Assembly: GCF_013122565.1 (NCBI RefSeq)
Contig: NZ_CP053258.1
DNA: 64,000 bases
Reading direction: 5' to 3' (one strand)
DNA from: Escherichia coli
GTDB lineage: Bacteria; Pseudomonadota; Gammaproteobacteria; Enterobacterales; Enterobacteriaceae
Position numbers and translations under genes: made by a program. Positions 12,447 through 33,206 of the stretch are shown here, piece after piece (the first letter of the stretch is position 1; each line of letters starts with the position of its first letter). Under the pieces are notes generated by a model. The model searched no databases. It was given only the letters and a program-made list of their open reading frames with translations, and was not told the origin of the DNA.

Positions 12447-12692
12447 ATGACCGATCTCTTTTCCAGCCCTGACCACACACTCGACGCGCTTGGCCTGCGC
12501 TGCCCGGAACCCGTAATGATGGTGCGCAAAACTGTGCGCAATATGCAGCCAGGTGAAACGTTGCTGATTATTGCTGACGATCCGGCGACGACCCGCGATA
12601 TTCCTGGGTTTTGTACCTTTATGGAACACGAACTGGTTGCTAAAGAGACGGATGGACTGCCTTATCGTTATTTGATTCGTAAATCGGGGTAA
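12447..12692 (+). CDS. tusA: Sulfur carrier protein TusA
   Basis: 81 aa with the CPEP active-site motif (LRCPEPVMM). Confidence 0.92.
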
Positions 12693-12721
12693 GGTGGATC
12701 AGGCTAGCGGACCGATCGCGC

Positions 12722-12890
12722 TCAATTTTGCGGCTTGCAACCGGTTTGTAGGATGGATAAAACGTTCAAGCTGCATCTGGCGATACGGTGCGCAATGCCT
12801 GATGCGACGCTGTCGCGTCTTATCATGCCTACGAGTTTGATGCCCTGTGTAGGCTGGATAAGGCGTTCACGCCGCATCCGGCACGCAAAC
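12722..12890. repeat. REP/BIME-type palindromic elements
   Basis: gcctgatgcgacgctg...cgtcttatcatgcctac and gtaggctggataaggcgttcacgccgcatccggca read directly. Confidence 0.7.
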
Positions 12891-12898
12891 GTATTGGA

Positions 12899-13216
12899 AT
12901 GCAAAAAATGGATTATTTAATTCCAGTTTGTCTGGCATTGCTTGGATTGCTGGCGATCTTCACCCCCAATTGGCTGATCCCTGTTTTTATCGTCGTGGGT
13001 GGATGGCTGGGAGTACTTGTCTGGGGCTGGCTCTGGCTAATGATATTTTTACCTTTACTTAACGGTGTCGGGCTTGCTTATGCCCTGTGGTTGATGTTCA
13101 AAAGGCCATCATTAGCATCCCGCCTGGTTGCTGCATTTAGTGTTATCTCCGTCATTCTGATGTTAGCGCTATATTACGCTATCCTGACCATGCCGCCGTT
13201 CCCGCCTCAGCATTAA
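12899..13216 (+). CDS. Small hypothetical inner-membrane protein (3-4 TM helices, Trp-rich)
   Basis: 105-aa ORF with strongly hydrophobic translation; lies in a segment not expected between tusA and zntA in K-12. Confidence 0.45.
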   Translation: MQKMDYLIPVCLALLGLLAIFTPNWLIPVFIVVGGWLGVLVWGWLWLMIFLPLLNGVGLAYALWLMFKRPSLASRLVAAFSVISVILMLALYYAILTMPPFPPQH

Positions 13217-13275
13217 GCCCTGTATACGGAAATGATGCCAGAAGTGCCGCCGGGGCACTCTGGCGGCAAAAAGGT

Positions 13276-13842
13276 TTAACTTTCCCAGGTAATATCCAGC
13301 AACTCACTCTTCTCGTCGAAAGTAAATACCAGCAACTGATCCGAGATATCTTTTGATATCCCATAATCCACAGTCATTTTTAACCTGCCTGGAGCAGGGG
13401 CGGCTATCCAGAGATGAACGCCACGTAAAGTGATTTGCTTTGCACAAGCCTCGTGCGTAGGTGGAGTTATATCTAGAGATTGCAATGTTTCAGCATCGAG
13501 TTCATCTAAATGAAACTCAATAAACTCATCAACAAACGCATTTGTTCCTTTCTTTTGCGCAAGTATGTTGCGGATAATTTCAGTACATGCAGGGAGGCTA
13601 TCCAGGAGTGGAACGATTTTCTCAATGGGGGTATTTGGCAGGACATCTTCAAAAATATTTAGCCAGACAGTTCGTTTTTCATTGTTAAGCGTAACGGGTA
13701 CGTATTCCGCGAAACCCTCTGACTTATCAACAGCGAGCCTTCCCCAGTAATTTGAATTTAACGTAATCATCCATTGATTCCATTTATATGTTATGTAATG
13801 AGATGCTGCGAAGCCCGTATTAGATAGCTTCGCAGGGCTCAC
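13276..13842 (-). CDS. Hypothetical protein, no recognisable family; true start may be the internal Met at 13770 (164 aa)
   Basis: 188-aa ORF in a lower-GC segment; a hairpin at 13801-13840 overlaps the first 14 codons, favouring the downstream start. Confidence 0.45.
   Translation of the reverse strand: MSPAKLSNTGFAASHYITYKWNQWMITLNSNYWGRLAVDKSEGFAEYVPVTLNNEKRTVWLNIFEDVLPNTPIEKIVPLLDSLPACTEIIRNILAQKKGTNAFVDEFIEFHLDELDAETLQSLDITPPTHEACAKQITLRGVHLWIAAPAPGRLKMTVDYGISKDISDQLLVFTFDEKSELLDITWES
13801..13840 (-). terminator. Hairpin downstream of zntA, candidate zntA terminator
   Basis: gctgcgaagc ... gcttcgcagg inverted repeat followed by A/T-rich sequence on the minus strand. Confidence 0.4.
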
Positions 13843-13878
13843 CGTATATCATGGTCAGGATGACAGCAATCCGAAAAA

Positions 13879-16080
13879 CTACCCCTTCCTGCGCAACAAT
13901 CTTAACGCATTCGCCGTCACCAGCACCGTCGCACCCGTATCTGCCAGCACTGCCAGCCATAGTCCGGTCATCCCTAAAAGCGTGGTGACGAGGAAGATCC
14001 CTTTCAGCCCCAGCGCAATGGTGATGTTCTGGCGGATATTGGCGTGAGTGGCGCGTGCCAGTTCAATCATTTGCACCAGGCCGCGCAGGTGGTTATGGGT
14101 TAATGCTGCGTCGGCGGTTTCCAGCGCCACGTCTGTGCCGCTACCCATTGCAATCCCAATGGCGGCAGCTTTCATCGCTGGCGCGTCGTTAATACCATCA
14201 CCGACCATCGCCAGGGGCGCATGTTGATTCAGCTTGGTCACCGCTTTGACTTTATCTTCCGGCAAGAGGCCCGCTTTAAACTCCAGCCCCAGCTCCCCGG
14301 CAATTGCGGCCGCTGCGCGTGGATTATCGCCGGTGAGGATCACTCCTTTAACCCCCAGCGCGTTCAGTTCACTGATGGCAGTTGCAGCATCGGCGCGCAG
14401 GGTATCCTGTAACGCAATGACACCAAGCACGTCATTGTTACGTACTACCAGCACTACCGTTTGCCCGGCGCTTTCCAGTTCGTTAATTAAACCAGCAAAT
14501 GCATCAGCGGGATGTTTCCCGGCAGCGCATATCAACACGCGCTCACCGTTAACCTGCGCTTCAATGCCAGACCCGACCAGCGCCCGCTGTGATTCGGCGG
14601 CGGGAATGGCGAGTGCAGCAACCTGTGCTTCTCGCACGATGGCCTGCGCCAGTGGATGCGTCGCGCCTTGCTCGACCGCCGCCGCCAGTGTCAGCAGTTC
14701 AGATTCACTAATACCCGTTGCCGGATGAATCGCGGTAACGCGCGGTTTACCGACGGTCAGCGTACCGGTTTTATCAAACGCCACCTGGGTAACATGACCC
14801 AGCTGTTCCAGCGCCGCTCCGCCTTTAATCAACGCCCCACGACGCGCTGCCGCCGCCAGCCCGGAGGTAATCGCCGCAGGCGTTGAGATAACTAACGCAC
14901 ACGGGCAGCCAATCAGCAGCAGCGTCAGCCCTTTATAAATCCACTCCTGCCAGCTGGCGGCAAACAGCAGCGGTGGCACCAGCGTCACCAGCAGAGCGAC
15001 GGCCATAATCGCGGGCGTATAGATACGGCTGAAACGGTCGATAAACCGCTCAATGGGTGCGCGACGCTCTTCGGCTTCTTCGATCAGTTTTAGAATCCGG
15101 TCAATGGCGCTGGCACCCGGTTCTGACAGCACTTCCAGCGTTACCAGACGGTCTACGCTGGTGGCACCAGCAGGGACTTTATCGCCCGTCGCGCGCTCCA
15201 CCGGAATGGATTCTCCGGTCAGGGCGCTTTCATCAAAACTGGCAAACGGTGAGAGCAGTTTACCGTCGGCAGGCAAACGTCCACCTGCGGCGACTTCAAT
15301 CATATCGCCAGGGCGCAGGCTGTTAATCGCCACCTCTTCCCGCTCACCGTTACGCAGGCGCGTGGCGGTTTCTGGTTTCAGCGCCATTAACGCGCTAACG
15401 CCCTGACGCGCGCGGCTGGCGGCCCAGCCTTCCAGTCGTTCACCAATCAAAAACAGCAGCAACACCATCGCAGCTTCAGCCGTTGCGCCAATAAACAGTG
15501 CACCAATAGCGGCTACGCTCATTAAGGTTTCAATGGCGAAGTAGCTGCCGGATTTGATCAGCCGTAATGCCTGACGAGCAATCGGGTACAGCCCAACCAG
15601 CGTGGTCGCGATAAACGCCAGTTGCCCGAACGGATGATTAAATTGCTCCAAACCCCAGCTGATTGCCATCATCACGATAAGCGTAATCAGCGGCAGATTC
15701 TCTTTCAGGCGCGATGCTTGTGGCTCGTCGGCGGCCTGCTCATCGCGCAGGGAATAGCCCGCTTTTTGCACCGCAGATTCAACTTGTGCACGGATGTCAT
15801 TGTCGGCATCAACCACCAGTTTTTCGGTGGCGAACAACACCTGTACCTGATTCACGCCTGCAAGCTGGCGCACGGCATTTTCTACCTTGCGCGCACAGGC
15901 GGCGCAGTCCATGCCGCTGACTTTCCAGCTATAGCGGGTGCCGGAGACGTTTTCAGAGAGAGTTGGCGTGCTGGAACATGCGCCGTCGCAGCAACAGTCG
16001 TTGGCGTTCTGTACCGTGGTTAGCGGTTTGAACGCAGCAAATTGAGGGGCTTTCTTGCCGTGATTGTCAGGAGTCGACAT
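13879..16080 (-). CDS. zntA: Zn/Cd/Pb-exporting P-type ATPase ZntA
   Basis: 733 aa, N-terminal GMDCAAC metal-binding motif, CPC transmembrane motif and DKTGT phosphorylation site. Confidence 0.93.
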   Translation of the reverse strand: MSTPDNHGKKAPQFAAFKPLTTVQNANDCCCDGACSSTPTLSENVSGTRYSWKVSGMDCAACARKVENAVRQLAGVNQVQVLFATEKLVVDADNDIRAQVESAVQKAGYSLRDEQAADEPQASRLKENLPLITLIVMMAISWGLEQFNHPFGQLAFIATTLVGLYPIARQALRLIKSGSYFAIETLMSVAAIGALFIGATAEAAMVLLLFLIGERLEGWAASRARQGVSALMALKPETATRLRNGEREEVAINSLRPGDMIEVAAGGRLPADGKLLSPFASFDESALTGESIPVERATGDKVPAGATSVDRLVTLEVLSEPGASAIDRILKLIEEAEERRAPIERFIDRFSRIYTPAIMAVALLVTLVPPLLFAASWQEWIYKGLTLLLIGCPCALVISTPAAITSGLAAAARRGALIKGGAALEQLGHVTQVAFDKTGTLTVGKPRVTAIHPATGISESELLTLAAAVEQGATHPLAQAIVREAQVAALAIPAAESQRALVGSGIEAQVNGERVLICAAGKHPADAFAGLINELESAGQTVVLVVRNNDVLGVIALQDTLRADAATAISELNALGVKGVILTGDNPRAAAAIAGELGLEFKAGLLPEDKVKAVTKLNQHAPLAMVGDGINDAPAMKAAAIGIAMGSGTDVALETADAALTHNHLRGLVQMIELARATHANIRQNITIALGLKGIFLVTTLLGMTGLWLAVLADTGATVLVTANALRLLRRKG

Positions 16081-16122
16081 GGCATCCTCCGGTTAAGTTT
16101 TTTCTCATTAACCGAAGGATAC

Positions 16123-16144
16123 ACTCTGGAGTCGACTCCAGAGT
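16123..16144 (-). promoter_or_regulatory. ZntR operator in the zntA promoter (perfect 22-bp palindrome)
   Basis: actctggagtcgactccagagt read directly, about 45 bp upstream of the zntA start. Confidence 0.75.
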
Positions 16145-16153
16145 CAAGTTTTA

Positions 16154-16780
16154 TCAGAGATACAGCGAGCGGACGATGAGGAAGTGACCGGCAAAGTAGC
16201 AGGCCGCAGCAATCGCGTTATCCGCATGGAAGCGTCGGCGATAGTGGCTACCCAGCCAGACAAAGTTACTGATAAACAGCAACGAAGCGCCAACAAACGC
16301 AGAGAGTGCCGGAGCGGTCGGACGGAAGAACCACAGTTCACCTGCCAGCCACACCATCACCAGCGTCATGCCGATAAACGTGCAGATAGGCCAACGATAC
16401 TCTTCCAGCCGCGTCCAGATAATCGCCAGTAACAGCGCGCCCAGAACCAGCAACACCAGTGGCAGAGGCCAGAAGAAAGAGAGCGTCATCTGACTGGCGA
16501 AATAGATGGTGTACAGCAGGTGCGAGAGGAAAAACGCGCCGATGGCGTACATCAGACGTTGACGTGGCAACAGGGTTAGCGCATCGCCCAGCAGTGAGGC
16601 GCACAGCCCTGCCAGCACCAGATAGCTAATGGCGTCGAACATCGGCGCTTGCCAGGCCAGTAACAGCAGGAGAAGAAGGGTTAACGGTTTAAACACCCAG
16701 CGTTGCCAGGTAGGCCCACGATACGATGCATCCACAGATAGCCATGCGGAAAGACAGACAGCGATAAACGACCAAAGCAT
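16154..16780 (-). CDS. yhhN: Membrane protein YhhN
   Basis: 208 aa multi-TM protein at the expected position next to zntA. Confidence 0.85.
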
Positions 16781-16920
16781 CTTAGTTCCTTGAATTCGTT
16801 ATTTTTTCGTAAGCGGAATGCCTACGGTCTTGCTTCCAGTTTAGTGGCGAGGGTGGACGGATGACAACACCATAACTGGCAGGGTATGCTTATTTCCGCA
16901 TTTTCCGATGAGGGATAAAG

Positions 16921-17280
16921 ATGAGCAAACCACCTCTTTTCTTTATTGTTATCATTGGCTTAATTGTCGTCGCCGCATCGTTTCGTTTTATGCAACAGCG
17001 ACGGGAAAAAGCTGATAATGATATGGCACCGCTCCAGCAAAAGCTGGTGGTGGTGAGCAACAAGCGGGAAAAACCGATTAACGATCGCCGTTCGCGCCAG
17101 CAGGAAGTGACTCCGGCAGGCACCAGTATGCGCTATGAGGCAAGCTTCAAACCGCAAAGCGGAGGAATGGAGCAGACGTTTCGCCTCGACGCCCAGCAGT
17201 ACCACGCCCTGACAGTGGGCGATAAAGGTACGCTGAGCTATAAAGGAACGCGCTTTGTCAGCTTTGTTGGCGAACAATAA
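16921..17280 (+). CDS. yhhM: DUF2500-family protein YhhM
   Basis: 119 aa with N-terminal TM anchor. Confidence 0.85.
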   Translation: MSKPPLFFIVIIGLIVVAASFRFMQQRREKADNDMAPLQQKLVVVSNKREKPINDRRSRQQEVTPAGTSMRYEASFKPQSGGMEQTFRLDAQQYHALTVGDKGTLSYKGTRFVSFVGEQ

Positions 17281-17282
17281 TG

Positions 17283-17552
17283 CTATTTTTTGAGGTTAAT
17301 TTTCTTCTGCCAGGCCAATAGTTCAAACACGCCGAAAAGGAAAATACGCACCTTTTCGGCGGTGGTTAGCTGCGGACTATCCTTCGGTAGGGTCGATTTG
17401 AGTAGCGCCAGTTGCATGGCATGCATCAGCACGGTAAAGATCAGCGCCACGTTAACGAAAATATTCAGCGGACGCGGGAAGGGATGCACCAGGTTGAGGA
17501 TTAAAAATCCCCAAACGCAGAGCATTAACAAACGTCCAATATTAATCAGCAT
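17283..17552 (-). CDS. yhhL: Small membrane protein YhhL
   Basis: 89 aa from the MLINIGRLL Met (the track ORF extends upstream into rsmD). Confidence 0.75.
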   Translation of the reverse strand: MLINIGRLLMLCVWGFLILNLVHPFPRPLNIFVNVALIFTVLMHAMQLALLKSTLPKDSPQLTTAEKVRIFLFGVFELLAWQKKINLKK

Positions 17553-18138
17553 CACTTTCTCCTTGTGCTTCGCGTTGATACAGCCGATAAGCCACCTGAC
17601 CCGCCACTTTTTCCCGATATAATGACCAGTTCGCCGGAACGGTGGGCAGACCGTTTTCGACTTCGCTTTCGACATAAATCAGGGCTTCGTCAGCCAGCCA
17701 GTCGTTATCTTCCAGTAAATTTATCGTCTCTTCTAACAAGCCACGGCGGAACGGTGGATCGACAAACACGATATTATGCGGTGTGCCTTTTTGCGCCAGG
17801 AATGACATCGCGTTGCTGTTCACCACGCGTGCATTGCCTGCTTTTAGTGTCGCCAGATTCTTAATTAACTGCTGAGAAACCGCGCGATCCATCTCAATCA
17901 ACGTGGCCCCCGCAGCGTAGCGCGATAACGCTTCCAGTCCCAGCGCGCCGCTTCCGGCGAAGCAATCCAGACATTGGGCGTCAACAATGACCGGAGCCAG
18001 CCAGTTAAATAACGTTTCGCGTACGCGGTCGGTGGTGGGGCGCAGACCTGGGCTATCAGGAACCGGGAGTTTACGGCCTCGCCACTGCCCGCCAATAATG
18101 CGGATTTGGCCGCTGCCGGAATGATTCGGTTTTTTCAT
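17542..18138 (-). CDS. rsmD: 16S rRNA m2G966 methyltransferase RsmD
   Basis: 198 aa with SAM-binding DCFAGSGALGLEALSR motif. Confidence 0.9.
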   Translation of the reverse strand: MKKPNHSGSGQIRIIGGQWRGRKLPVPDSPGLRPTTDRVRETLFNWLAPVIVDAQCLDCFAGSGALGLEALSRYAAGATLIEMDRAVSQQLIKNLATLKAGNARVVNSNAMSFLAQKGTPHNIVFVDPPFRRGLLEETINLLEDNDWLADEALIYVESEVENGLPTVPANWSLYREKVAGQVAYRLYQREAQGESDAD

Positions 18139-18287
18139 AATAAATTGCTCAATCCGCCAGATAACACATACTTGCAGGCGGTGATGTGAATTAAGTTAAG
18201 TGATAGACTATTTCATCATTTTTTTAGCTGCTATGTACATAGCGTTAACGCTGTGCCATGAAGCAACAGCGAGGAGTGTAGTCGCAA

Positions 18288-19784
18288 ATGGCGAAAGAAA
18301 AAAAACGTGGCTTTTTTTCCTGGCTGGGCTTTGGTCAAAAAGAGCAGACCCCGGAAAAAGAGACAGAAGTTCAGAATGAACAACCGGTTGTAGAAGAAAT
18401 CGTTCAGGCGCAAGAGCCTGCGAAGGCTTCGGAACACGCCGTTGAAGAGCAGCCGCAGGCGCATACTGAGGCCGAAGCGGAAACTTTTGCTGCCGAAGTT
18501 GTGGAAGTCACTGAACAGGTTGCTGAAAGTGAAAAAGCGCAGCCTGAAGCGGAAGTCGTTGCACAGCCGGAACTGGTCGCAGAAGAAACGCCGGAGCCAG
18601 TGGCTATCGAGCGTGAAGAGCTGCCGTTGCCGGAAGACGTCAACGCCGAAGCGGTTTCGCCAGAAGAGTGGCAGGCCGCAGCGGAAACCGTAGAGATTGT
18701 CGAAGCGGCGGAAGAAGAAGCGGCTAAAGAAGAAATCGCCGACGAAGAGCTGGAAGCACAGGCGCTGGCTGCCGAAGCGGCAGAAGAGGCGGTGATGGTG
18801 GTTCCTCCGGCAGAAGAAGAGCAGCCGGTGGAAGAAATCGCTCAGGAGCAGGAAAAACCGACCAAAGAAGGTTTCTTCGCGCGCCTGAAACGCAGCCTGT
18901 TAAAAACCAAAGAAAATCTCGGTTCCGGATTTATCAGCCTGTTCCGCGGTAAAAAAATCGACGATGATTTGTTTGAGGAGCTGGAAGAGCAGCTTTTGAT
19001 CGCCGATGTGGGCGTGGAAACCACACGTAAAATTATCACCAATCTGACGGAAGGCGCATCCCGCAAGCAGCTTCGTGATGCCGAGGCGCTCTATGGCCTG
19101 CTGAAAGAAGAGATGGGTGAGATTCTGGCGAAAGTCGATGAGCCGCTGAATGTTGAAGGCAAAGCGCCGTTTGTGATCCTGATGGTGGGCGTCAACGGTG
19201 TGGGTAAAACCACGACGATTGGTAAGCTGGCACGTCAGTTTGAGCAGCAGGGTAAATCGGTGATGCTGGCGGCGGGCGATACTTTCCGTGCAGCAGCGGT
19301 TGAGCAGCTTCAGGTCTGGGGTCAGCGCAACAATATTCCGGTGATTGCCCAGCATACCGGGGCGGATTCCGCTTCGGTTATCTTCGACGCCATTCAGGCA
19401 GCTAAAGCGCGTAATATCGACGTCCTGATTGCCGATACCGCCGGACGCCTGCAGAACAAATCGCACCTGATGGAAGAGTTGAAGAAAATCGTCCGCGTGA
19501 TGAAGAAACTCGACGTTGAAGCGCCGCATGAAGTTATGCTGACTATCGATGCCAGCACCGGGCAGAACGCGGTAAGCCAGGCCAAACTGTTTCACGAAGC
19601 CGTTGGCTTAACCGGCATCACGCTAACGAAACTGGACGGCACGGCGAAAGGCGGGGTAATTTTCTCGGTGGCTGACCAGTTTGGTATCCCTATCCGCTAC
19701 ATTGGTGTCGGCGAACGTATTGAGGATTTGCGTCCGTTTAAGGCGGACGACTTTATAGAGGCACTTTTTGCCCGAGAGGATTAA
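18288..19784 (+). CDS. ftsY: Signal-recognition-particle receptor FtsY
   Basis: 498 aa; acidic Glu/Ala-rich N-terminal domain followed by an SRP GTPase domain (GVNGVGKTT, DTAGR). Confidence 0.93.
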   Translation: MAKEKKRGFFSWLGFGQKEQTPEKETEVQNEQPVVEEIVQAQEPAKASEHAVEEQPQAHTEAEAETFAAEVVEVTEQVAESEKAQPEAEVVAQPELVAEETPEPVAIEREELPLPEDVNAEAVSPEEWQAAAETVEIVEAAEEEAAKEEIADEELEAQALAAEAAEEAVMVVPPAEEEQPVEEIAQEQEKPTKEGFFARLKRSLLKTKENLGSGFISLFRGKKIDDDLFEELEEQLLIADVGVETTRKIITNLTEGASRKQLRDAEALYGLLKEEMGEILAKVDEPLNVEGKAPFVILMVGVNGVGKTTTIGKLARQFEQQGKSVMLAAGDTFRAAAVEQLQVWGQRNNIPVIAQHTGADSASVIFDAIQAAKARNIDVLIADTAGRLQNKSHLMEELKKIVRVMKKLDVEAPHEVMLTIDASTGQNAVSQAKLFHEAVGLTGITLTKLDGTAKGGVIFSVADQFGIPIRYIGVGERIEDLRPFKADDFIEALFARED

Positions 19785-19786
19785 CA

Positions 19787-20455
19787 ATGATTCGCTTTGA
19801 ACATGTCAGCAAGGCTTATCTCGGTGGGAGACAGGCGCTGCAGGGCGTTACGTTCCATATGCAGCCGGGTGAGATGGCGTTTCTGACCGGTCATTCTGGC
19901 GCAGGGAAAAGTACCCTCCTGAAGCTGATCTGTGGGATTGAGCGGCCCAGCGCCGGGAAAATCTGGTTTAGCGGCCATGACATCACGCGTCTGAAAAACC
20001 GTGAAGTTCCGTTTCTGCGCCGCCAGATTGGCATGATTTTCCAGGATCACCATCTACTGATGGACCGTACTGTCTACGATAACGTGGCGATCCCGCTTAT
20101 TATCGCCGGTGCCAGCGGTGACGATATTCGTCGCCGGGTGTCGGCGGCACTGGATAAAGTCGGGCTACTGGACAAAGCGAAGAACTTCCCTATTCAGCTT
20201 TCTGGCGGTGAACAACAGCGTGTTGGCATTGCCCGCGCGGTGGTGAACAAGCCCGCGGTACTGCTGGCGGACGAACCGACTGGTAACCTGGACGACGCGT
20301 TGTCGGAAGGGATTCTACGTCTGTTTGAAGAGTTTAACCGCGTAGGGGTAACCGTATTGATGGCAACGCACGACATCAACCTGATTTCACGGCGTTCCTA
20401 TCGCATGCTCACCCTGAGCGATGGTCACTTGCATGGAGGCGTGGGCCATGAATAA
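19787..20455 (+). CDS. ftsE: Cell-division ABC ATPase FtsE
   Basis: 222 aa, Walker [10 protein letters not shown] and LSGGEQQR signature. Confidence 0.93.
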
Positions 20456-21506
20456 GCGCGATGCAATCAATCATATTCGGCAGTTTGGCGGGCGTCTGGA
20501 TCGCTTCCGTAAATCGGTCGGCGGCTCTGGCGACGGCGGTCGTAACGCGCCGAAACGCGCGAAATCCTCGCCAAAACCGGTAAATCGCAAAACCAACGTT
20601 TTCAACGAACAGGTGCGCTATGCCTTCCACGGCGCATTGCAGGATCTGAAAAGCAAACCGTTCGCCACGTTTTTAACGGTGATGGTTATCGCCATCTCCC
20701 TGACGCTGCCCAGCGTCTGTTATATGGTGTACAAAAACGTTAACCAGGCGGCGACGCAGTATTATCCGTCACCGCAAATCACTGTTTACTTGCAAAAAAC
20801 GCTGGACGATGACGCCGCTGCGGGCGTGGTGGCACAGTTGCAGGCCGAGCAAGGCGTGGAGAAAGTGAACTATCTTTCTCGTGAAGATGCACTGGGCGAG
20901 TTCCGTAACTGGTCTGGTTTTGGTGGTGCGCTGGATATGCTGGAAGAAAACCCGCTTCCGGCAGTGGCGGTGGTGATCCCGAAACTCGATTTTCAGGGGA
21001 CGGAGTCACTCAATACGCTGCGCGACCGTATCACGCAGATTAACGGCATTGACGAAGTGCGGATGGATGACAGCTGGTTTGCCCGCCTGGCGGCGTTGAC
21101 CGGGCTGGTCGGGCGCGTTTCGGCGATGATCGGCGTGTTGATGGTGGCGGCAGTGTTCCTCGTCATCGGTAACAGTGTACGCCTGAGTATCTTTGCTCGT
21201 CGTGACTCCATTAACGTGCAGAAACTGATTGGTGCAACGGATGGTTTCATCCTGCGCCCGTTCCTGTACGGTGGCGCATTGCTGGGGTTTTCTGGCGCAT
21301 TGTTGTCACTAATTTTGTCAGAAATTCTGGTACTGCGATTGTCATCGGCGGTTGCGGAAGTGGCACAGGTTTTCGGAACGAAGTTTGATATCAATGGCTT
21401 ATCGTTCGATGAATGCCTGCTATTGCTGCTGGTATGCTCGATGATTGGCTGGGTGGCAGCGTGGCTTGCCACGGTACAACATTTACGCCACTTTACGCCT
21501 GAATAA
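20448..21506 (+). CDS. ftsX: Cell-division ABC permease-like protein FtsX
   Basis: 352 aa from the ATG that overlaps the ftsE stop. Confidence 0.9.
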
Positions 21507-21524
21507 TAAAAGCGTGTTATACTC

Positions 21525-21558
21525 TTTCCCTGCAATGGGTTCCGTAGCAGGGAAAGAG
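21525..21558 (+). other. Hairpin between ftsX and rpoH (tctttccctgc...gcagggaaaga), possible partial terminator in the rpoH promoter region
   Basis: Inverted repeat read directly; no strong T-run follows. Confidence 0.35.
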
Positions 21559-21750
21559 ATCCCGTTGTCTCTTCCCGGTATTTCATCTCTATGTCACATT
21601 TTGTGCGTAATTTATTCACAAGCTTGCATTGAACTTGTGGATAAAATCACGGTCTGATAAAACAGTGAATGATAACCTCGTTGCTCTTAAGCTCTGGCAC
21701 AGTTGTTGCTACCACTGAAGCGCCAGAAGATATCGATTGAGAGGATTTGA

Positions 21751-22605
21751 ATGACTGACAAAATGCAAAGTTTAGCTTTAGCCCCAGTTGGCAACCTGGA
21801 TTCCTACATCCGGGCAGCTAACGCGTGGCCGATGTTGTCGGCTGACGAGGAGCGGGCGCTGGCTGAAAAGCTGCATTACCATGGCGATCTGGAAGCAGCT
21901 AAAACGCTGATCCTGTCTCACCTGCGGTTTGTTGTTCATATTGCTCGTAATTATGCGGGCTATGGCCTGCCACAGGCGGATTTGATTCAGGAAGGTAACA
22001 TCGGCCTGATGAAAGCAGTGCGCCGTTTCAACCCGGAAGTGGGTGTGCGCCTGGTCTCCTTCGCCGTTCACTGGATCAAAGCAGAGATCCACGAATACGT
22101 TCTGCGTAACTGGCGTATCGTCAAAGTTGCGACCACCAAAGCGCAGCGCAAACTGTTCTTCAACCTGCGTAAAACCAAGCAGCGTCTGGGCTGGTTTAAC
22201 CAGGATGAAGTCGAAATGGTGGCCCGTGAACTGGGCGTAACCAGCAAAGACGTACGTGAGATGGAATCACGTATGGCGGCACAGGACATGACCTTTGACC
22301 TGTCTTCCGACGACGATTCCGACAGCCAGCCGATGGCACCGGTGCTCTATCTGCAGGATAAATCATCTAACTTTGCCGACGGCATTGAAGATGATAACTG
22401 GGAAGAGCAGGCAGCAAACCGTCTGACCGACGCGATGCAGGGTCTGGACGAACGCAGCCAGGACATCATCCGCGCGCGCTGGCTGGACGAAGACAACAAG
22501 TCCACGTTGCAGGAACTGGCTGACCGTTACGGTGTTTCCGCTGAGCGTGTGCGCCAGCTGGAAAAGAACGCGATGAAAAAACTGCGCGCTGCTATTGAAG
22601 CGTAA
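21751..22605 (+). CDS. rpoH: Heat-shock sigma factor sigma-32
   Basis: 284 aa with sigma-70-family regions 2 and 4. Confidence 0.95.
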
Positions 22606-22625
22606 TTTCTGCTATTAAGCAGAGA

Positions 22626-22658
22626 ACCCTGGATGAGAGTCCGGGGTTTTGTTTTTTG
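22626..22658 (+). terminator. Rho-independent terminator of rpoH
   Basis: accctgga...tccggggt stem followed by ttttgtttttt. Confidence 0.55.
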
Positions 22659-22874
22659 GGCCTCTGTAATAATCAATTTCCCCTCCGGCAAAACGCCAAT
22701 CCCCACGCAGATTGTTAATAAACTGTCAAAATAGCTATTCCAATATCATAAAAATCGGGTATGTTTTAGCAGAGTATGCTGCTAAAGCACGGGTAGTCAT
22801 GCATAAAACGAAATAAAGTGCTGAACAACAACATCACAACACACGTAATAACCAGAAGAATGGGGATTCTCAGG

Positions 22875-23978
22875 ATGAACATAAAGGGTAAAGCGTTACT
22901 GGCAGGATGTATCGCGCTGGCATTCAGCAATATGGCTCTGGCAGAAGATATTAAAGTCGCTGTCGTGGGCGCAATGTCCGGGCCGGTGGCACAGTACGGT
23001 GACCAGGAGTTTACTGGCGCTGAGCAGGCGGTAGCGGATATCAACGCTAAAGGCGGCATTAAAGGCAACAAACTGCAAATCGTAAAATATGACGATGCCT
23101 GTGACCCGAAACAGGCGGTTGCGGTGGCGAACAAAGTCGTTAACGACGGCATTAAATACGTGATTGGTCACCTCTGTTCTTCATCAACGCAGCCTGCGTC
23201 TGACATCTACGAAGACGAAGGCATTTTAATGATCACCCCAGCGGCAACCGCGCCGGAGCTGACCGCCCGTGGCTATCAGCTGATCCTGCGCACCACCGGC
23301 CTGGACTCCGACCAAGGGCCGACGGCGGCGAAATATATTCTTGAGAAAGTGAAACCGCAGCGTATTGCTATCGTTCACGACAAACAGCAATACGGCGAAG
23401 GTCTGGCGCGAGCGGTGCAGGACGGCCTGAAGAAAGGCAATGCTAACGTGGTGTTCTTTGATGGTATCACCGCCGGGGAAAAAGATTTCTCAACGCTGGT
23501 GGCGCGTCTGAAAAAAGAGAATATCGACTTCGTTTACTACGGCGGTTATCACCCGGAAATGGGGCAAATCCTGCGTCAGGCACGCGCGGCAGGGCTGAAA
23601 ACTCAGTTTATGGGGCCGGAAGGTGTGGCTAACGTTTCGCTGTCTAACATTGCGGGCGAATCAGCGGAAGGGCTGCTGGTGACCAAGCCGAAGAACTACG
23701 ATCAGGTTCCGGCGAACAAACCCATTGTTGATGCGATCAAAGCGAAAAAACAGGACCCAAGCGGCGCATTCGTCTGGACTACCTACGCCGCGCTGCAATC
23801 TTTGCAGGCGGGTCTGAATCAGTCTGACGATCCGGCAGAAATCGCCAAATACCTGAAAGCGAACTCCGTGGATACCGTGATGGGGCCGCTGACGTGGGAT
23901 GAGAAAGGCGATCTGAAAGGCTTTGAGTTCGGCGTATTTGACTGGCACGCCAACGGCACGGCGACCGATGCGAAGTAA
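22875..23978 (+). CDS. livJ: Periplasmic Leu/Ile/Val-binding protein LivJ
   Basis: 367 aa from the MNIKGK Met with signal peptide; paralogous to LivK in this window. Confidence 0.92.
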
Positions 23979-23998
23979 CGGATAGATAAATGAAAATG

Positions 23999-24030
23999 CC
24001 CGATGCGCTTAACGTCCATCGGGTTTTTTT
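23999..24030 (+). terminator. Rho-independent terminator of livJ
   Basis: cccgatg...catcggg stem followed by a T7 run. Confidence 0.6.
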
Positions 24031-24082
24031 ATGTTTGTCGAAATGGTTGTAGAAAGATTAAACAATCCAGGATATGCTTATT

Positions 24083-24101
24083 GTACGGTGATGTGCCGTA
24101 C
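24083..24101. promoter_or_regulatory. Palindrome gtacggtgatgtgccgtac upstream of the DUF1778 antitoxin gene; candidate autoregulatory operator
   Basis: Inverted repeat read directly, about 25 bp upstream of the ATG at 24128. Confidence 0.4.
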
Positions 24102-24127
24102 ATATTATACGGAGCAGGAGAGTTCAC

Positions 24128-24394
24128 ATGTCTGCTGTTAAAAAGCAGCGTATCGATCTGCGTTTAACTGACGATGACAAAAGTATGATTGAGGAAGCTG
24201 CAGCGATATCTAATCAGTCCGTCAGCCAATTTATGTTGAACAGCGCTTCGCAGCGGGCTGCGGAAGTGATTGAACAGCATCGGCGGGTGATCCTCAATGA
24301 GGAATCCTGGACGCGGGTGATGGATGCGCTGAGTAATCCACCGTCACCAGGTGAAAAGCTAAAACGTGCGGCAAAACGTCTTCAGGGAATGTAA
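24128..24394 (+). CDS. DUF1778-type antitoxin (AtaR/TacA-like) of a GNAT toxin-antitoxin pair
   Basis: 88-aa ORF 6 bp upstream of a GNAT-toxin-like ORF; family assignment by resemblance. Confidence 0.65.
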   Translation: MSAVKKQRIDLRLTDDDKSMIEEAAAISNQSVSQFMLNSASQRAAEVIEQHRRVILNEESWTRVMDALSNPPSPGEKLKRAAKRLQGM

Positions 24395-24400
24395 TAATTT

Positions 24401-24928
24401 ATGGATGATCTGACGATAGAGATTCTGACCGATGATGCAGATTATGATCTACAGCGATTCGACTGCGGCGAGGAAGCGTTAAATCTCTTTCTGACGACAC
24501 ATCTAGTTCGTCAACATCGCAACAAAATTCTGCGAGCGTATATCCTTTGTCGCAACACTCCAGAACGTCAGGTGCTGGGATATTACACATTATCCGGCAG
24601 TTGTTTTGAACGAGCCGCATTGCCCTCGAAATCGAAACAGAAAAAAATTCCCTACAAAAATATTCCCAGCGTCACTCTTGGGCGTATGGCAATTGATCGT
24701 TCATTACAGGGGCAGGGATGGGGAGCAACACTGGTTGCTCATGCCATGAAAGTCGTCTGGTCAGCCTCTTTAGCAGTAGGTATTCATGGTCTTTTTGTAG
24801 AGGCGCTGAATGAAAAAGCCCATACGTTTTATAAATCGCTGGGCTTTATCCCGTTGGTCGGAGAAAACGAAAATGCGTTATTTTTCCCAACCAAATCCAT
24901 TGAACTGCTTTTTACACAGAGCGATTAA
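24401..24928 (+). CDS. GNAT-family acetyltransferase toxin (AtaT/TacT/ItaT-like, tRNA-acetylating type)
   Basis: 175 aa with acetyl-CoA-binding RMAIDRSLQGQGWGATLV motif; paired with the upstream DUF1778 ORF. Confidence 0.7.
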   Translation: MDDLTIEILTDDADYDLQRFDCGEEALNLFLTTHLVRQHRNKILRAYILCRNTPERQVLGYYTLSGSCFERAALPSKSKQKKIPYKNIPSVTLGRMAIDRSLQGQGWGATLVAHAMKVVWSASLAVGIHGLFVEALNEKAHTFYKSLGFIPLVGENENALFFPTKSIELLFTQSD

Positions 24929-25308
24929 CGCTTCTCCCAGCCGCCCTGTTGTGCCGTAAACCCCAGTGCCTGCATAAACGCTGTCATCACACCGCGATCT
25001 TCCACGCCTGCATCCGCCATCCACCAGCATGAAACGCCAGGATTGTTACGCAAAACCTCTTCCAGCAGATATTGCCCCACACCGCGACGGCGGGTGACTT
25101 CCCGCACGCGTAGAGATTCTAGTGCCCCCTCGGTGCCGCTTAAGGTTACCCGCACGGCCGCAAGCAGGCGCTCGTTAAAACGCGCGGCGTAGATGCGGTG
25201 GTTATCGTCAACCTGTAAAGAGGAAGGGGAATACTCCGGCCAGATCTTTTGCAGGTCAATCCGGTCCTGGTCGCTAAAGTTTTCTAATCGAATGATGGTC
25301 AGCTTCAT
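24925..25308 (-). CDS. panM: PanD maturation factor PanM/PanZ
   Basis: 127 aa GNAT-fold protein at the expected position between livJ and livK. Confidence 0.88.
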   Translation of the reverse strand: MKLTIIRLENFSDQDRIDLQKIWPEYSPSSLQVDDNHRIYAARFNERLLAAVRVTLSGTEGALESLRVREVTRRRGVGQYLLEEVLRNNPGVSCWWMADAGVEDRGVMTAFMQALGFTAQQGGWEKR

Positions 25309-25731
25309 GGGTAACCCGTGTAAATCACAAAAGTGGAACCAGTGTAGCGAAATAATTTAATCGGAGGCTTTCTCTTTTTTCTTTCTTTTGGCAGGTGATT
25401 AATTTTTTAACAGCAATAATTACAAAGTTAAAACATTAGAGAATGAAAAATACCCAGCATAATCCCCTGAATAGTAGTGAATTATTCCGCCCTTTGTGCC
25501 GTTATTTTATGCTGACAAAGGCACTTTTTTCTGTTTATCTATCAATAAATTCAGAATATTATCTGTTCTTAATCGACTGAAAAATAGGGATTTTAATCGC
25601 TATTATCACAAAATACTGCGCTAAACCCTTAATCAGACAGGCAAAAACAGTGCAGTATAAAAAAAGAACAGTCTGATTTGTTAACACATAAAAACAAAGC
25701 AACACAACATCACGAATGGGGATTTTTGACT

Positions 25732-26841
25732 ATGAAACGGAATGCGAAAACTATCATCGCAGGGATGATTGCACTGGCAATTTCACACACCGCTATAGCT
25801 GACGATATTAAAGTCGCCGTTGTCGGCGCGATGTCCGGCCCGATTGCCCAGTGGGGCGATATGGAATTTAACGGCGCGCGTCAGGCGATTAAAGACATTA
25901 ATGCCAAAGGGGGAATTAAGGGCGACAAGCTGGTGGGCGTGGAATATGACGACGCCTGCGACCCGAAACAAGCCGTTGCGGTCGCCAACAAAATCGTTAA
26001 CGACGGCATTAAATACGTTATTGGTCATCTGTGTTCTTCTTCTACCCAACCTGCATCAGATATTTACGAAGACGAAGGTATTCTGATGATCTCGCCGGGA
26101 GCGACCAACCCGGAGCTGACTCAACGCGGTTATCAACACATTATGCGTACTGCCGGGCTGGACTCTTCCCAGGGGCCAACGGCGGCAAAATACATTCTTG
26201 AGACGGTGAAGCCCCAGCGCATCGCCATCATTCACGACAAACAACAGTATGGCGAAGGGCTGGCACGTTCGGTGCAGGACGGGCTGAAAGCGGCTAACGC
26301 CAACGTCGTCTTCTTCGACGGCATTACCGCTGGCGAGAAAGATTTCTCCGCGCTGATCGCCCGCCTGAAAAAAGAAAACATCGACTTCGTTTATTACGGC
26401 GGTTACTACCCGGAAATGGGGCAGATGCTGCGCCAGGCCCGTTCCGTTGGCCTGAAAACCCAGTTTATGGGGCCGGAAGGTGTGGGTAATGCGTCGCTGT
26501 CGAATATTGCTGGCGATGCTGCCGAAGGCATGTTGGTCACTATGCCAAAACGCTATGACCAGGATCCGGCAAACAAAGGCATCGTTGATGCGCTGAAAGC
26601 AGACAAGAAAGATCCGTCCGGGCCTTATGTTTGGATCACTTATGCGGCGGTGCAATCTCTGGCGACTGCCCTTGAGCGTACCGGCAGCGATGAGCCGCTG
26701 GCGCTGGTGAAAGATTTAAAAGCTAACGGTGCAAACACCGTGATTGGGCCGCTGAACTGGGATGAAAAAGGCGATCTTAAGGGATTTGATTTTGGTGTCT
26801 TCCAGTGGCACGCCGACGGTTCATCCACGGCAGCCAAGTGA
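25732..26841 (+). CDS. livK: Periplasmic leucine-specific binding protein LivK
   Basis: 369 aa from the MKRNAK Met with signal peptide. Confidence 0.92.
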
Positions 26842-26849
26842 TCATCCCA

Positions 26850-26874
26850 CCGCCCGTGAAATGCGGGCGGGTTT
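26850..26874 (+). terminator. Hairpin after livK (ccgcccg...cgggcgg), possible attenuating terminator
   Basis: Inverted repeat followed by a short T-run. Confidence 0.4.
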
Positions 26875-26888
26875 AGAAAGGTTACCTT

Positions 26889-27815
26889 ATGTCTGAGCAG
26901 TTTTTATATTTCTTGCAGCAGATGTTTAACGGCGTCACGCTGGGCAGTACCTACGCGCTGATAGCCATCGGCTACACCATGGTTTACGGCATTATCGGCA
27001 TGATCAACTTCGCCCACGGCGAGGTTTACATGATCGGCAGCTACGTCTCATTTATGATCATCGCCGCACTGATGATGCTGGGCATTGATACCGGCTGGCT
27101 GCTGGTGGCGGCGGGATTCGTCGGCGCAATCGTCATCGCCAGCGCCTACGGCTGGAGTATCGAACGGGTGGCCTATCGCCCGGTGCGCAACTCCAAGCGC
27201 CTGATTGCGCTCATCTCGGCAATCGGTATGTCCATCTTCCTGCAAAACTACGTCAGCCTGACCGAAGGTTCGCGCGACGTGGCGCTGCCGAGCCTGTTTA
27301 ACGGGCAGTGGGTGGTGGGCCATAGCGAAAACTTCTCTGCCTCTATTACCACCATGCAGGCGGTGATCTGGATTGTTACTTTCCTCGCCATGCTGGCGCT
27401 GACGATTTTCATTCGTTATTCCCGTATGGGGCGCGCCTGCCGTGCCTGCGCGGAAGATCTGAAAATGGCGAGTCTGCTTGGCATTAACACCGACCGGGTG
27501 ATTGCGCTGACCTTTGTGATTGGTGCGGCGATGGCGGCGGTGGCGGGCGTACTGCTCGGTCAGTTCTACGGTGTGATTAACCCCTATATCGGCTTTATGG
27601 CCGGGATGAAAGCCTTTACCGCTGCGGTGCTCGGTGGGATTGGCAGCATTCCGGGAGCGATGATTGGCGGGCTGATCCTGGGGATTGCGGAGGCGCTCTC
27701 TTCTGCCTATCTGAGTACGGAATATAAAGATGTGGTCTCATTCGCCCTGCTGATCCTGGTGCTGTTGGTGATGCCGACCGGTATTCTGGGTCGCCCGGAG
27801 GTAGAGAAAGTATGA
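26889..27815 (+). CDS. livH: Branched-chain amino-acid ABC permease LivH
   Basis: 308 aa multi-TM permease. Confidence 0.93.
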
Positions 27816-29089
27816 AACCGATGCATATTGCAATGGCGCTGCTCTCTGCCGCGATGTTTTTTGTCCTGGCGGGCGTCTTTATGGGCGTGCAACTGGAGCT
27901 GGATGGCACCAAACTGGTGGTCGATAGCGCTTCGGATGTCCGTTGGCAGTGGGTGTTTATCGGCACGGCGGTGGTCTTTTTCTTCCAGCTTTTGCGACCG
28001 GCTTTCCAGAAAGGGCTGAAAAGCGTTTCCGGACCGAAGTTTATTCTGCCCGCGATTGATGGCTCCACGGTGAAACAGAAACTGTTCCTCGTGGCGCTGT
28101 TGGTGCTTGCGGTGGCGTGGCCGTTTATGGTGTCGCGCGGGACGGTGGATATCGCCACCCTGACCATGATCTACATTATCCTCGGCCTCGGGCTGAACGT
28201 GGTTGTTGGTCTTTCTGGTCTGCTGGTGCTGGGGTACGGCGGCTTTTACGCCATCGGCGCTTACACCTTTGCGCTGCTCAATCACTATTACGGCCTGGGC
28301 TTCTGGACCTGTCTGCCGATTGCCGGGTTAATGGCAGCGGCGGCGGGCTTCCTGCTCGGCTTCCCGGTGTTGCGTTTACGTGGCGACTATCTGGCGATCG
28401 TTACCCTCGGTTTCGGCGAAATTGTGCGCATATTGCTGCTCAATAACACTGAAATCACCGGTGGCCCGAACGGAATTAGTCAGATCCCGAAACCGACTTT
28501 CTTCGGCCTCGAGTTCAGCCGTACCGCCCGCGAAGGCGGCTGGGACACGTTCAGTAATTTCTTTGGCCTGAAATACGATCCCTCCGATCGCGTTATCTTC
28601 CTGTACCTGGTGGCGTTGCTGCTGGTGGTATTAAGCCTGTTTGTCATTAACCGCCTGCTGCGGATGCCGCTGGGCCGTGCGTGGGAAGCGTTGCGTGAAG
28701 ACGAGATCGCCTGCCGTTCGCTGGGCTTAAGCCCGCGTCGTATCAAGCTGACTGCCTTTACCATCAGCGCCGCGTTTGCCGGTTTTGCCGGAACGCTGTT
28801 TGCGGCGCGTCAGGGCTTTGTCAGCCCGGAATCCTTCACCTTTGCTGAATCAGCCTTTGTGCTGGCGATAGTGGTGCTCGGCGGTATGGGCTCGCAATTT
28901 GCGGTAATTCTGGCGGCAATTTTGCTGGTGGTGTCGCGCGAATTGATGCGTGATTTCAACGAATACAGCATGTTAATGCTCGGTGGTTTGATGGTGCTGA
29001 TGATGATCTGGCGTCCGCAGGGCTTGCTGCCCATGACGCGCCCGCAACTCAAGCTGAAAAACGGCGCAGCAAAAGGAGAGCAGGCATGA
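27812..29089 (+). CDS. livM: Branched-chain amino-acid ABC permease LivM
   Basis: 425 aa multi-TM permease; overlaps livH and livG. Confidence 0.93.
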
Positions 29090-29853
29090 GTCAGCCATTA
29101 TTATCTGTTAACGGTCTGATGATGCGCTTCGGCGGCCTGCTGGCGGTGAACAACGTCAATCTTGAGCTGTACCCGCAGGAGATCGTCTCGTTAATCGGCC
29201 CTAACGGTGCCGGAAAAACCACGGTTTTTAACTGTCTGACCGGATTCTACAAACCCACCGGCGGCACCATTTTACTGCGCGATCAGCACCTGGAAGGTTT
29301 ACCGGGGCAGCAAATTGCCCGCATGGGCGTGGTGCGCACCTTCCAGCATGTGCGTCTGTTCCGTGAAATGACGGTAATTGAAAACCTGCTGGTGGCACAG
29401 CATCAGCAACTGAAAACCGGGCTGTTCTCTGGCCTGTTGAAAACGCCTTCTTTCCGTCGCGCCCAGAGCGAAGCGCTCGACCGCGCCGCCACCTGGCTTG
29501 AGCGCATTGGTTTGCTGGAACACGCCAACCGTCAGGCGAGCAACCTGGCCTATGGCGACCAGCGTCGTCTGGAGATCGCCCGCTGCATGGTGACGCAGCC
29601 GGAGATTTTAATGCTCGACGAACCGGCAGCGGGTCTTAACCCGAAAGAGACGAAAGAGCTGGATGAGCTGATTGCCGAACTGCGTAACCATCACAACACC
29701 ACTATCTTGTTGATTGAACACGATATGAAGCTGGTGATGGGGATTTCAGACAGAATTTACGTGGTCAACCAGGGGACGCCGCTGGCAAACGGTACGCCGG
29801 AGCAGATCCGTAATAACCCGGACGTGATCCGTGCCTATTTAGGTGAGGCATAA
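29086..29853 (+). CDS. livG: Branched-chain amino-acid ABC ATPase LivG
   Basis: 255 aa, Walker [10 protein letters not shown]. Confidence 0.93.
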
Positions 29854-29854
29854 G

Positions 29855-30568
29855 ATGGAAAAAGTCATGTTGTCCTTTGACAAAGTCAGCGCCCACTACG
29901 GTAAAATCCAGGCGCTGCATGAGGTGAGCCTGCATATCAATCAGGGCGAGATTGTTACCCTGATTGGCGCGAACGGGGCGGGAAAAACCACCTTGCTCGG
30001 CACATTATGCGGCGATCCGCGCGCCACCAGCGGGCGAATTGTGTTTGATGATAAAGACATTACCGACTGGCAGACGGCGAAAATCATGCGCGAAGCGGTA
30101 GCGATTGTCCCGGAAGGGCGTCGCGTCTTCTCGCGCATGACGGTGGAAGAGAATCTGGCGATGGGCGGCTTTTTTGCCGAACGCGACCAGTTTCAGGAGC
30201 GCATAAAGTGGGTATATGAACTGTTTCCACGTCTGCATGAGCGCCGTGTTCAGCGGGCAGGCACCATGTCCGGCGGTGAGCAGCAGATGCTGGCGATTGG
30301 TCGCGCGCTGATGAGCAATCCGCGTTTGTTGTTACTTGATGAGCCATCGCTCGGTCTTGCGCCGATTATCATCCAGCAAATTTTCGACACCATCGAGCAG
30401 CTGCGCGAGCAGGGGATGACTATCTTCCTCGTCGAGCAGAACGCCAACCAGGCGCTGAAGCTGGCGGATCGCGGCTACGTGCTGGAAAACGGTCATGTGG
30501 TGCTTTCCGATACCGGCGACGCGCTACTGGCGAACGAAGCGGTGAGAAGCGCGTATTTGGGCGGGTGA
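29855..30568 (+). CDS. livF: Branched-chain amino-acid ABC ATPase LivF
   Basis: 237 aa from the MEKVML Met, Walker A GANGAGKTT. Confidence 0.93.
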   Translation: MEKVMLSFDKVSAHYGKIQALHEVSLHINQGEIVTLIGANGAGKTTLLGTLCGDPRATSGRIVFDDKDITDWQTAKIMREAVAIVPEGRRVFSRMTVEENLAMGGFFAERDQFQERIKWVYELFPRLHERRVQRAGTMSGGEQQMLAIGRALMSNPRLLLLDEPSLGLAPIIIQQIFDTIEQLREQGMTIFLVEQNANQALKLADRGYVLENGHVVLSDTGDALLANEAVRSAYLGG

Positions 30569-30686
30569 TTTATCAATAACCCGGCAGCTAAGTTCTGCCG
30601 GGTTATTTGTCTGTATACAGACTTGTTTCAACTGACCGGGAGGATTAAAAACTGTCCACTTATTTGCCACGGAAAGGTTCCCTCCC

Positions 30687-31433: not shown

Positions 31434-31654
31434 AAATCTTCTTTGCCGTTAGGCCAGTGTCGCGGCAATCTTTTGTTAAAATTGAAAAATGTAGCTTTCA
31501 TCGGGCAGCAAAACTGGACGCAGAATTTGCTGCCATTTTTGCTCTTCATGGTAAGGAGTTCTGGCGATTAGCTGGCCGTTAATCGCCTCTTTTCAGTGCA
31601 TTCTCGGGATATCCGTGCCCCATCTCCCATTTTCCCTCACCCGTACCGTCACCG

Positions 31655-31735
31655 CCTTGTCATCTTTCTGACACCTTACTATCTTACAAATGTAACAAAA
31701 AAGTTATTTTTCTGTAATTCGAGCATGTCATGTTA
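31655..31735 (+). promoter_or_regulatory. ugpB promoter region with Pho-box-like repeats
   Basis: cttgtcatctttctgacacc and ctgtaattcgagcatgtcatg resemble the PhoB consensus CTGTCAT-N4-CTGTCAT. Confidence 0.5.
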
Positions 31736-31792
31736 CCCCGCGAGCATAAAACGCGTGAATTCGCGCATTCGGTACAACAAGAGAGATAAACG

Positions 31793-33109: not shown

Positions 33110-33116
33110 TCAGTGT

Positions 33117-33188: not shown

Positions 33189-33206
33189 GTTCAGGAATTA
33201 ACCGTA

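Follow-up and report, generated by a model that had tools for sequence, protein, structure and literature searches.

Two genes in the tusA-zntA interval of an unusual Escherichia coli lineage: a probably ancestral segment, lost piecemeal from most of the species

The interval between tusA and zntA

The stretch of DNA analysed here, which we call the window, comprises 64,000 nucleotides of one strand of the Escherichia coli contig NZ_CP053258.1. In it, according to the ORF list, tusA and zntA converge on an interval of 1186 bp (12693-13878) that contains a cluster of repeats, hairpins and two convergent genes encoding a small membrane protein and a larger soluble one. The features, with the evidence for each in brackets, are the following.

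12447..12692, plus strand: tusA, the left boundary gene (ORF list, RefSeq annotation of matching loci, alignment)
12751..12886, no strand assigned: REP/BIME-like cluster with three REP units (Rfam naRNA4, megablast, alignment with CEA601S)
12908..13216, plus strand: gene of a 102-aa Trp-rich protein, predicted to be a polytopic membrane protein (homologues, dN/dS, hydropathy, start-codon argument)
13237..13264, no strand assigned: GC-rich hairpin in the 59-bp spacer between the convergent stop codons (fold)
13276..13770, minus strand: gene of a 164-aa acidic protein, predicted to be cytosolic and alpha/beta (orthologues, dN/dS, distant relatives, hhalign, AlphaFold2)
13771..13878, minus strand: conserved 108-nt spacer from the zntA stop to the start of the large gene (alignment, fold, consensus scan)
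13879..16080, minus strand: zntA, the right boundary gene (ORF list, annotation of matching loci, alignment)

Alignment shows that both boundary genes end differently from their K-12-type counterparts, with RKSG* instead of RKGG* in tusA and LRRKG* instead of LRRR* in zntA; what is known of these two genes is unaffected by the present findings. REP-type repeats lie at approximately 12751-12829 and 12852-12886, where the REP-like Rfam model naRNA4 scores 49.3 and 34.6 bits, both below its gathering score of 59.5. By megablast, an E. coli genome has a median of 30 places that match the REP sequences, in keeping with the many-copy character of such elements, and strains of E. coli devoid of both ORFs have the cluster too, as seen in the alignment with CEA601S. 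The original prediction, made from the letters of the window alone, had described REP elements between the convergent ends of tusA and zntA and two ORFs in DNA of lower GC content. The repeats are indeed there, and GC content drops to 48% in the small ORF and 42% in the large one, zntA and the whole window standing at 58% and 52% respectively. The arrangement recalls the REP/BIME variable intergenic regions of E. coli, in which REP units likewise lie between convergent genes and alternative haplotypes occur from strain to strain; it differs from them in that the long haplotype found here adds two protein-coding genes which are under selection and would predate the species. The lineage of the window is itself unusual: no complete E. 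coli genome exceeds 97.7% identity to its DNA over 20 kb.

The small ORF extends in its maximal form from 12899 to 13216 on the plus strand, which corresponds to the 105-aa Trp-rich membrane protein initially announced. The ATG at 12899 was rejected as the start, being out of frame in strain 98232 and not conserved. It is the second ATG, at 12908, that is conserved as a start, and a true length of 102 aa is retained because of the out-of-frame upstream ATG of strain 98232 and because the annotated homologues have 102 aa. These homologues, all of about that length, are confined to Escherichia, where the gene occurs in E. marmotae and other clades; truncated versions of 58-61 aa exist in some strains. 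The protein contains 6 Trp in its 102 residues, and its hydropathy profile is suggestive of three or four membrane spans: residues 3 to about 62 are hydrophobic throughout, a Lys/Arg loop occupies 65-72, and a final hydrophobic helix covers 74-96. No family could be assigned to it, the NCBIfam scan yielding only noise; an MnhF-like match of 17 bits was set aside as hydrophobic similarity only.

On the opposite strand, the large ORF reaches its maximal form at 13276-13842, with 188 aa counted from a GTG, and the 164- to 188-aa frame foreseen on this strand is conserved in its 164-aa form. In four of five homologue groups the start coincides with the ATG at 13770 or precedes it by one codon; homologues from E. 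albertii, from an E. coli/clade cluster and from a metagenome support this start, and only the E. fergusonii annotation has the 188-aa GTG form. The GTG start was discarded: the extension is absent from the E. albertii, MOD1-EC7003 and metagenomic homologues and overlaps a conserved hairpin, and the part of the frame that runs to 13842 is probably untranslated. In the fold, this hairpin has 10 pairs at approximately 13805-13836, inside the 188-aa extension and upstream of the 164-aa start, so that the hairpin originally noticed at the 5' end of the longer reading frame is real and correctly placed. One of its pairs shows a compensatory change from C-G to U-A in E. albertii and MOD1-EC7003, and no U tract follows it. 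The 108-nt spacer in which it lies is 91.6% identical to that of E. albertii, versus 85.5% for the large ORF.

The second hairpin, at 13237-13264, belongs to a segment (13214-13285) whose fold on the plus strand reaches -25.4 kcal/mol with z = -2.2, and it could act as a shared terminator or as an RNA-stabilising element. It has no T run and was not called by the consensus terminator scan; more generally, the consensus promoter and terminator scans of 12600-14000 found no site. The large gene, which lies on the same strand as zntA and 108 nt downstream of it, would probably be transcribed by read-through from zntA past the conserved hairpin devoid of a U tract, and the small gene probably by read-through from tusA across the REPs.

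Conservation of the reading frames across strains had been set as a check on the original prediction, and both frames are kept, with dN/dS ratios of 0.13-0.44 for the small gene and 0.16-0.28 for the large one in comparisons where dS reaches 0.53. In the species compared, each frame is intact and free of indels. It is because of these low ratios and of these intact, indel-free frames that both ORFs are, on comparative grounds, regarded as real genes under purifying selection. That they would instead be decaying remnants without function is hardly credible: their loss from most E. coli and the truncated versions of the small protein speak for decay, but dN/dS stays well below 1, the frames remain intact and without indels over dS values of up to 0.5, and the model of the large protein presented below is confident and compact.

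Distribution and history of the segment

The original prediction held tusA and zntA to be nearly adjacent in K-12 and took the interval for an accessory islet. The first point is exact: K-12-like strains have a tusA-zntA interval of 101 bp from which both ORFs are absent, and this short junction is found in 4567 (84%) of the 5426 complete RefSeq E. coli genomes that constitute our genome set. The whole segment, at a coverage of at least 80%, is present in none of the 5426, nor do the two genes occur together in any of them. The small gene is found alone in 317 genomes, for instance in SMS-3-5 with about 93.6% identity, and the large gene alone in a single one, that of strain 6EVA, with 97.5% identity; the rest seem to have intervals with REPs only or other variants, that of CEA601S for example. 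The interval is hence variable within the species, and the possibility, raised at the outset, that it might be core sequence conserved in all E. coli is not borne out. Since each gene is found without the other, the two do not form an obligate pair.

The picture is different among the other members of the genus. In E. albertii (loci L006 and L007) and in Escherichia sp. MOD1-EC7003 (L017), both genes occupy this locus too, with order and convergent orientation unchanged, and in E. fergusonii (L005) the large gene alone is found between tusA and zntA. Identity to E. albertii is 85.5% for the large gene and 88.7% for the small one, compared with 87.5-89.9% for zntA and 94.3% for yhhQ; the corresponding values for MOD1-EC7003 are 87.3%, 90.0%, 90.8-94.8% and 94.9%. 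With E. fergusonii, the large gene shares 95.8% identity, against 91.6% for both the 3' half of zntA and yhhQ, and because the gene is closer to this species than its flanks are, some inter-species recombination is likely, as far as such comparisons can tell. Apart from this mild excess of similarity to E. fergusonii, the distribution and divergence of the segment, whose locus is shared by four Escherichia species or clades, are not at odds with those of its flanks in the manner of a genomic island.

These data bear on the direction of the event. A horizontally acquired islet, in which foreign low-GC DNA would have been inserted between tusA and zntA in the present lineage, would account for a GC content of 42-48% next to the 58% of zntA, for the very patchy occurrence in E. 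coli (the large gene in 1 of 5426 genomes, the small one in 317), for the replacement of the final codons of tusA and zntA by the variable segment and for the closeness of the large gene to E. fergusonii. Nevertheless, we consider such an insertion unlikely. E. albertii, E. fergusonii and a cryptic clade carry these genes at the identical site, and the divergence of the genes scales with that of the flanks. No integrase or transposase gene figures among the ORFs of the interval, none of the repeats detected falls on the segment boundaries or resembles an att site, and no plasmid or phage copy was detected, bar distant Listeria matches of chromosomal type. Of the islet first proposed, the variability in E. 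coli thus stands and the insertion does not.

The identical locus in related species, the divergence that follows the flanks and the lack of mobility genes and boundary repeats lead us to regard the segment as ancestral and eroded in E. coli, and ancestral presence followed by repeated loss, which fits the comparisons within Escherichia better than insertion, is the simplest reading. The segment would be no younger than the common ancestor shared by E. albertii, E. fergusonii, the cryptic clades and E. coli; in most E. coli it would have been deleted or replaced, with break points that extend into the final codons of both flanking genes. That it was acquired long ago, prior to the radiation of the genus, is compatible with the data. 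The overall explanation that we propose, and to which we give a probability of roughly 70%, is therefore that of an old, vertically inherited segment of two functional genes, nearly complete in the present lineage and lost piecemeal from most E. coli, whose larger product would be a divergent DUF2004/DUF2262-like protein. What looks here like a low-GC, patchy islet would be an ancestral segment under loss and not a foreign gain, a distinction that matters wherever presence and absence in a pangenome are taken as horizontal transfer.

Family and fold of the large protein

The original prediction recognised no family for the large protein, and direct searches agree with it. Neither this protein nor its Escherichia orthologues match any Pfam model even at E <= 10, and NCBIfam returns noise only. 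The orthologues bear the name DUF2004 in RefSeq. Among 5.8 billion proteins, a word-indexed search recovered four clusters, all of them from Escherichia but for one metagenomic protein of 58% identity (P0004). When 1.84 billion representatives were searched exhaustively with a profile of the Escherichia proteins, 129 relatives emerged, nearly all of 160-170 aa and aligned from end to end, with HMMER E-values between 1e-17 and 1e-4; 11 of 70 relatives match Pfam DUF2262. A wider profile gathered 435 proteins, mostly of 166 aa and from Bacteroidota, many of which bear a precomputed PF10020 annotation or the NCBI/UniRef name "DUF2004 domain-containing protein".

A further comparison is that of the Escherichia-only profile with the PF10020-annotated proteins, for which hhalign gives a probability of 97.8% and an E-value of 1.2e-12 over 152 of 165 columns. 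The family link is supported because this test, carried out with a profile restricted to Escherichia, is not circular. The pangenome and profile comparisons called for by the original prediction have been made, the first revealing the patchiness of both genes among 5426 genomes and the second this link. By profile comparison, the large protein belongs, as a divergent member, to a widespread and uncharacterised DUF2262/DUF2004-like family of about 166 aa; the claim that it belongs to no recognisable family holds inasmuch as Pfam gives no direct match and the family is uncharacterised, but not as regards membership itself. Escherichia orthologues that every Pfam model misses are now tied to a large uncharacterised family.

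The status of this family with respect to Pfam needs to be specified. Its Bacteroidota members score 20-26 bits where the Pfam cut-off is 29.8, and do not reach the gathering threshold, and the Listeria relative scores 14.6 bits on DUF2004, for a cut-off of 27. Because even the core of the family scores below the Pfam thresholds, it is to be classed, on its sequences, as a sister group of DUF2262, DUF6985 and DUF2004, not as a formal member. It resembles DUF2262 (PF10020), DUF6985 (PF22481) and DUF2004 (PF09406) in its single domain of about 165 aa and in the order of its secondary structures, and the Escherichia proteins have in common with the DUF2262/DUF2004 group the motifs FIEFHL and SD-ELLV and the C-terminal Glu-Ser; they differ in ending in W-E-S where the group usually has H/M-E-S. 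In the alignments of the family, D135 and E163 are invariant, G10, D144 and S164 are conserved to at least 90%, H87 is often present, and the C-terminus is an invariant Glu-Ser. Members are distributed over Bacteroidota, Bacillota (including Listeria), Actinomycetota and Proteobacteria. Literature searches on DUF2004, DUF2262, DUF6985 and their Pfam accessions found nothing relevant.

The AlphaFold2 model computed from the alignment of 70 sequences has a pLDDT of 96.1 and a pTM of 0.90; a model computed from five Escherichia-type sequences only had a pLDDT of 53 and was discarded. The predicted fold consists of four N-terminal strands, a helical segment spanning residues 43-110 and four C-terminal strands. 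Foldseek found no convincing neighbour in the PDB (best E 0.075), BFVD contains no viral structural neighbour, and profile searches of the PDB sequences with the Escherichia-only, the 70-sequence-family and the PF10020-set alignments gave no match. With a confident predicted fold and no solved relative, the protein is a sensible choice for structure determination and toxin-immunity screens.

Possible roles of the large protein

For the function of the large protein, the original prediction offered a defence-associated or an orphan immunity-type role. The first of these would make one or both genes an anti-phage defence or abortive-infection module, as might be imagined from a pangenome-variable, low-GC segment in which a small membrane protein accompanies a soluble one. 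It finds no echo in the searches and we hold it to be very improbable: PADLOC, at E <= 1, returns nothing for either ORF or for four distant relatives, PHROGs returns nothing for either ORF or for the distant relatives, no enzymatic or sensor domain was found, no structural neighbour is viral, and the two genes occur independently of each other.

The vicinity of zntA evokes another role, in which the large protein would be a metal accessory of ZntA, co-transcribed with it under ZntR and binding or buffering Zn, Cd or Pb by means of conserved Asp, Glu and His residues together with the terminal Glu-Ser. The gene has the strand of zntA and follows it at 108 nt, no promoter-like site separates the two, the intervening hairpin has no U tract, the spacer is better conserved than the ORF, and the acidic residues and the terminal ES are invariant across the family. 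Set against this, no metal transporter adjoins the gene in the contexts of about 20 relatives that were examined, about 94% of complete E. coli genomes manage without the gene, and the protein has only 2 Cys and 3 His. We judge such a metal function to be quite improbable.

There remains the class of orphan immunity proteins, which the large protein resembles in being small, acidic (26 D/E versus 14 K/R), cytosolic and alpha+beta, as far as composition and model allow it to be described. Heterogeneous polyimmunity loci of polymorphic toxin systems have been described by Zhang et al. 2012 (PMC3482391), and the small-gene arrays around some of the distant relatives fit that description. Several Bacteroidota copies lie within runs of small co-directional hypothetical genes; SUKH/SMI1_KNR4 and LRR proteins are encoded in the neighbourhood of one relative (L035), weak SUKH and LRR matches in that of another (L037), and DMP19 and DUF6994 in that of a third (L031). 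NADAR genes adjoin relatives in two unrelated loci (L015 and L022), one distant relative lies 1.4 kb from Rhs-repeat genes, and two relatives form fusions with LRR or TPR repeats.

The Escherichia locus itself departs from orphan and polyimmunity loci, since the gene stands by itself among housekeeping genes and neither a toxin gene nor a further immunity gene is close to it. No toxin gene was found near the Escherichia copies, whose neighbours are zntA, tusA and the small membrane-protein gene, and scans of the large protein and 70 relatives gave no match to the Imm, SUKH or SuFu families of Pfam. No conserved partner gene emerged from the contexts of about 20 relatives examined, most of which are uninformative. 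Moreover, the polar residues conserved across phyla (D135, D144, E163, S164 and often H87) look, in the alignments, more like an active or ligand site than like the surface of a fast-evolving immunity protein. As regards gene context, the immunity-type idea draws on a few neighbourhoods and fusions of distant relatives.

Weighing these elements, we tentatively retain as the likeliest class, at clearly less than even odds, that of a stand-alone binding or neutralising protein of the orphan immunity type, as opposed to an enzyme or a phage-defence effector. A broader conjecture, which we regard as doubtful, is that the DUF2004/DUF2262-like proteins of about 166 aa would together form an unrecognised, phylum-spanning family of orphan immunity proteins or inhibitors, with an unsolved fold and an essential C-terminal Glu-Ser, of which the Escherichia copy would be a relic. 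If this were true, that copy would once have protected its host against a toxin common in the niche of the genus and would now be dispensable in most E. coli.

Two further points concern the surroundings of the relatives. A related-loci search with a 12-sequence alignment retrieved 8 loci. Many of the contexts are of a housekeeping kind: the Rhodococcus copy lies between MarR/MFS and LexA genes, and the Listeria copy is flanked by a hypothetical gene and a PBP gene, in the vicinity of inlAB-lntA; the Listeria locus appears to correspond to lmo0440, which figures in the literature only as the landmark of an "inert" integration site.

Edges of the haplotype and origin of the window

The edges of the tusA-zntA haplotype fall, in the alignment, within the final codons of the two flanking genes, whose products differ from those of K-12 at their C-termini:
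12681-12692 (+): TusA C-terminus, RKSG in the window versus RKGG in K-12
13879-13893 (-): ZntA C-terminus, LRRKG in the window versus LRRR in K-12

The K-12-type short tusA-zntA spacer (L004, 1294-1394) holds a repeated element, with a median of 4 matching places per genome, that is not present in the window. Simple loss of sequence from the long form therefore does not account for the K-12 state. Among 5426 complete RefSeq E. coli genomes, the top identity to positions 14000-34000 of the window is 97.7% over 20 kb, and this region resembles many phylogroups alike. The source of the window is probably a deep-branching E. coli lineage or a cryptic clade unrepresented among the complete genomes.

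Repeats and spacer around the large gene

The large gene, which encodes the 164-aa DUF2004/DUF2262-like protein, lies between the arms of a perfect inverted repeat of 12 nt, which reads ATCCUGACCAUG in the sense of both transcripts:
13181-13192: first arm, at the small ORF's 3' end
13850-13861: second arm, just downstream of the zntA stop codon

By our own estimate, about 0.05 such 12-nt inverted-repeat pairs would be expected by chance in the stretch. Comparison of the alignment with the repeats revealed no coincidence between the arms and the deletion boundaries of other strains. The spacer between zntA and the large gene (13771-13878) is more conserved across species than both adjoining coding regions, and it contains an invariant CAUCCUGACCAU that RNAalifold predicts to pair with bases around the large gene's ribosome-binding site and start codon; no covariation for this predicted pairing was found by RNAalifold in the spacer alignment.

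The E. fergusonii locus and the distant relatives

In E. fergusonii CP031282.1, zntA is split into two called ORFs of 468 and 218 aa (L005, 3764-5964), just upstream of the DUF2004-like gene, an arrangement that points to a frameshift or pseudogene, or else to an error in the assembly.

Among more distant relatives, NADAR-domain genes directly adjoin DUF2004/DUF2262-like genes in two unrelated loci of Bacillota-type or metagenomic origin:
L015, 1255-2091: NADAR-domain neighbour
L022, 6516-7079: NADAR-domain neighbour

The family member of Listeria monocytogenes (L030, 5920-6423), annotated as a DUF2004 protein, is flanked by lntA and a neighbouring hypothetical gene on one side and by a PBP gene on the other, with inlAB nearby. 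By its position, this gene is probably the counterpart of EGD-e lmo0440. The intergenic region between lmo0439 and lmo0440 has served as an "inert" site for integration.
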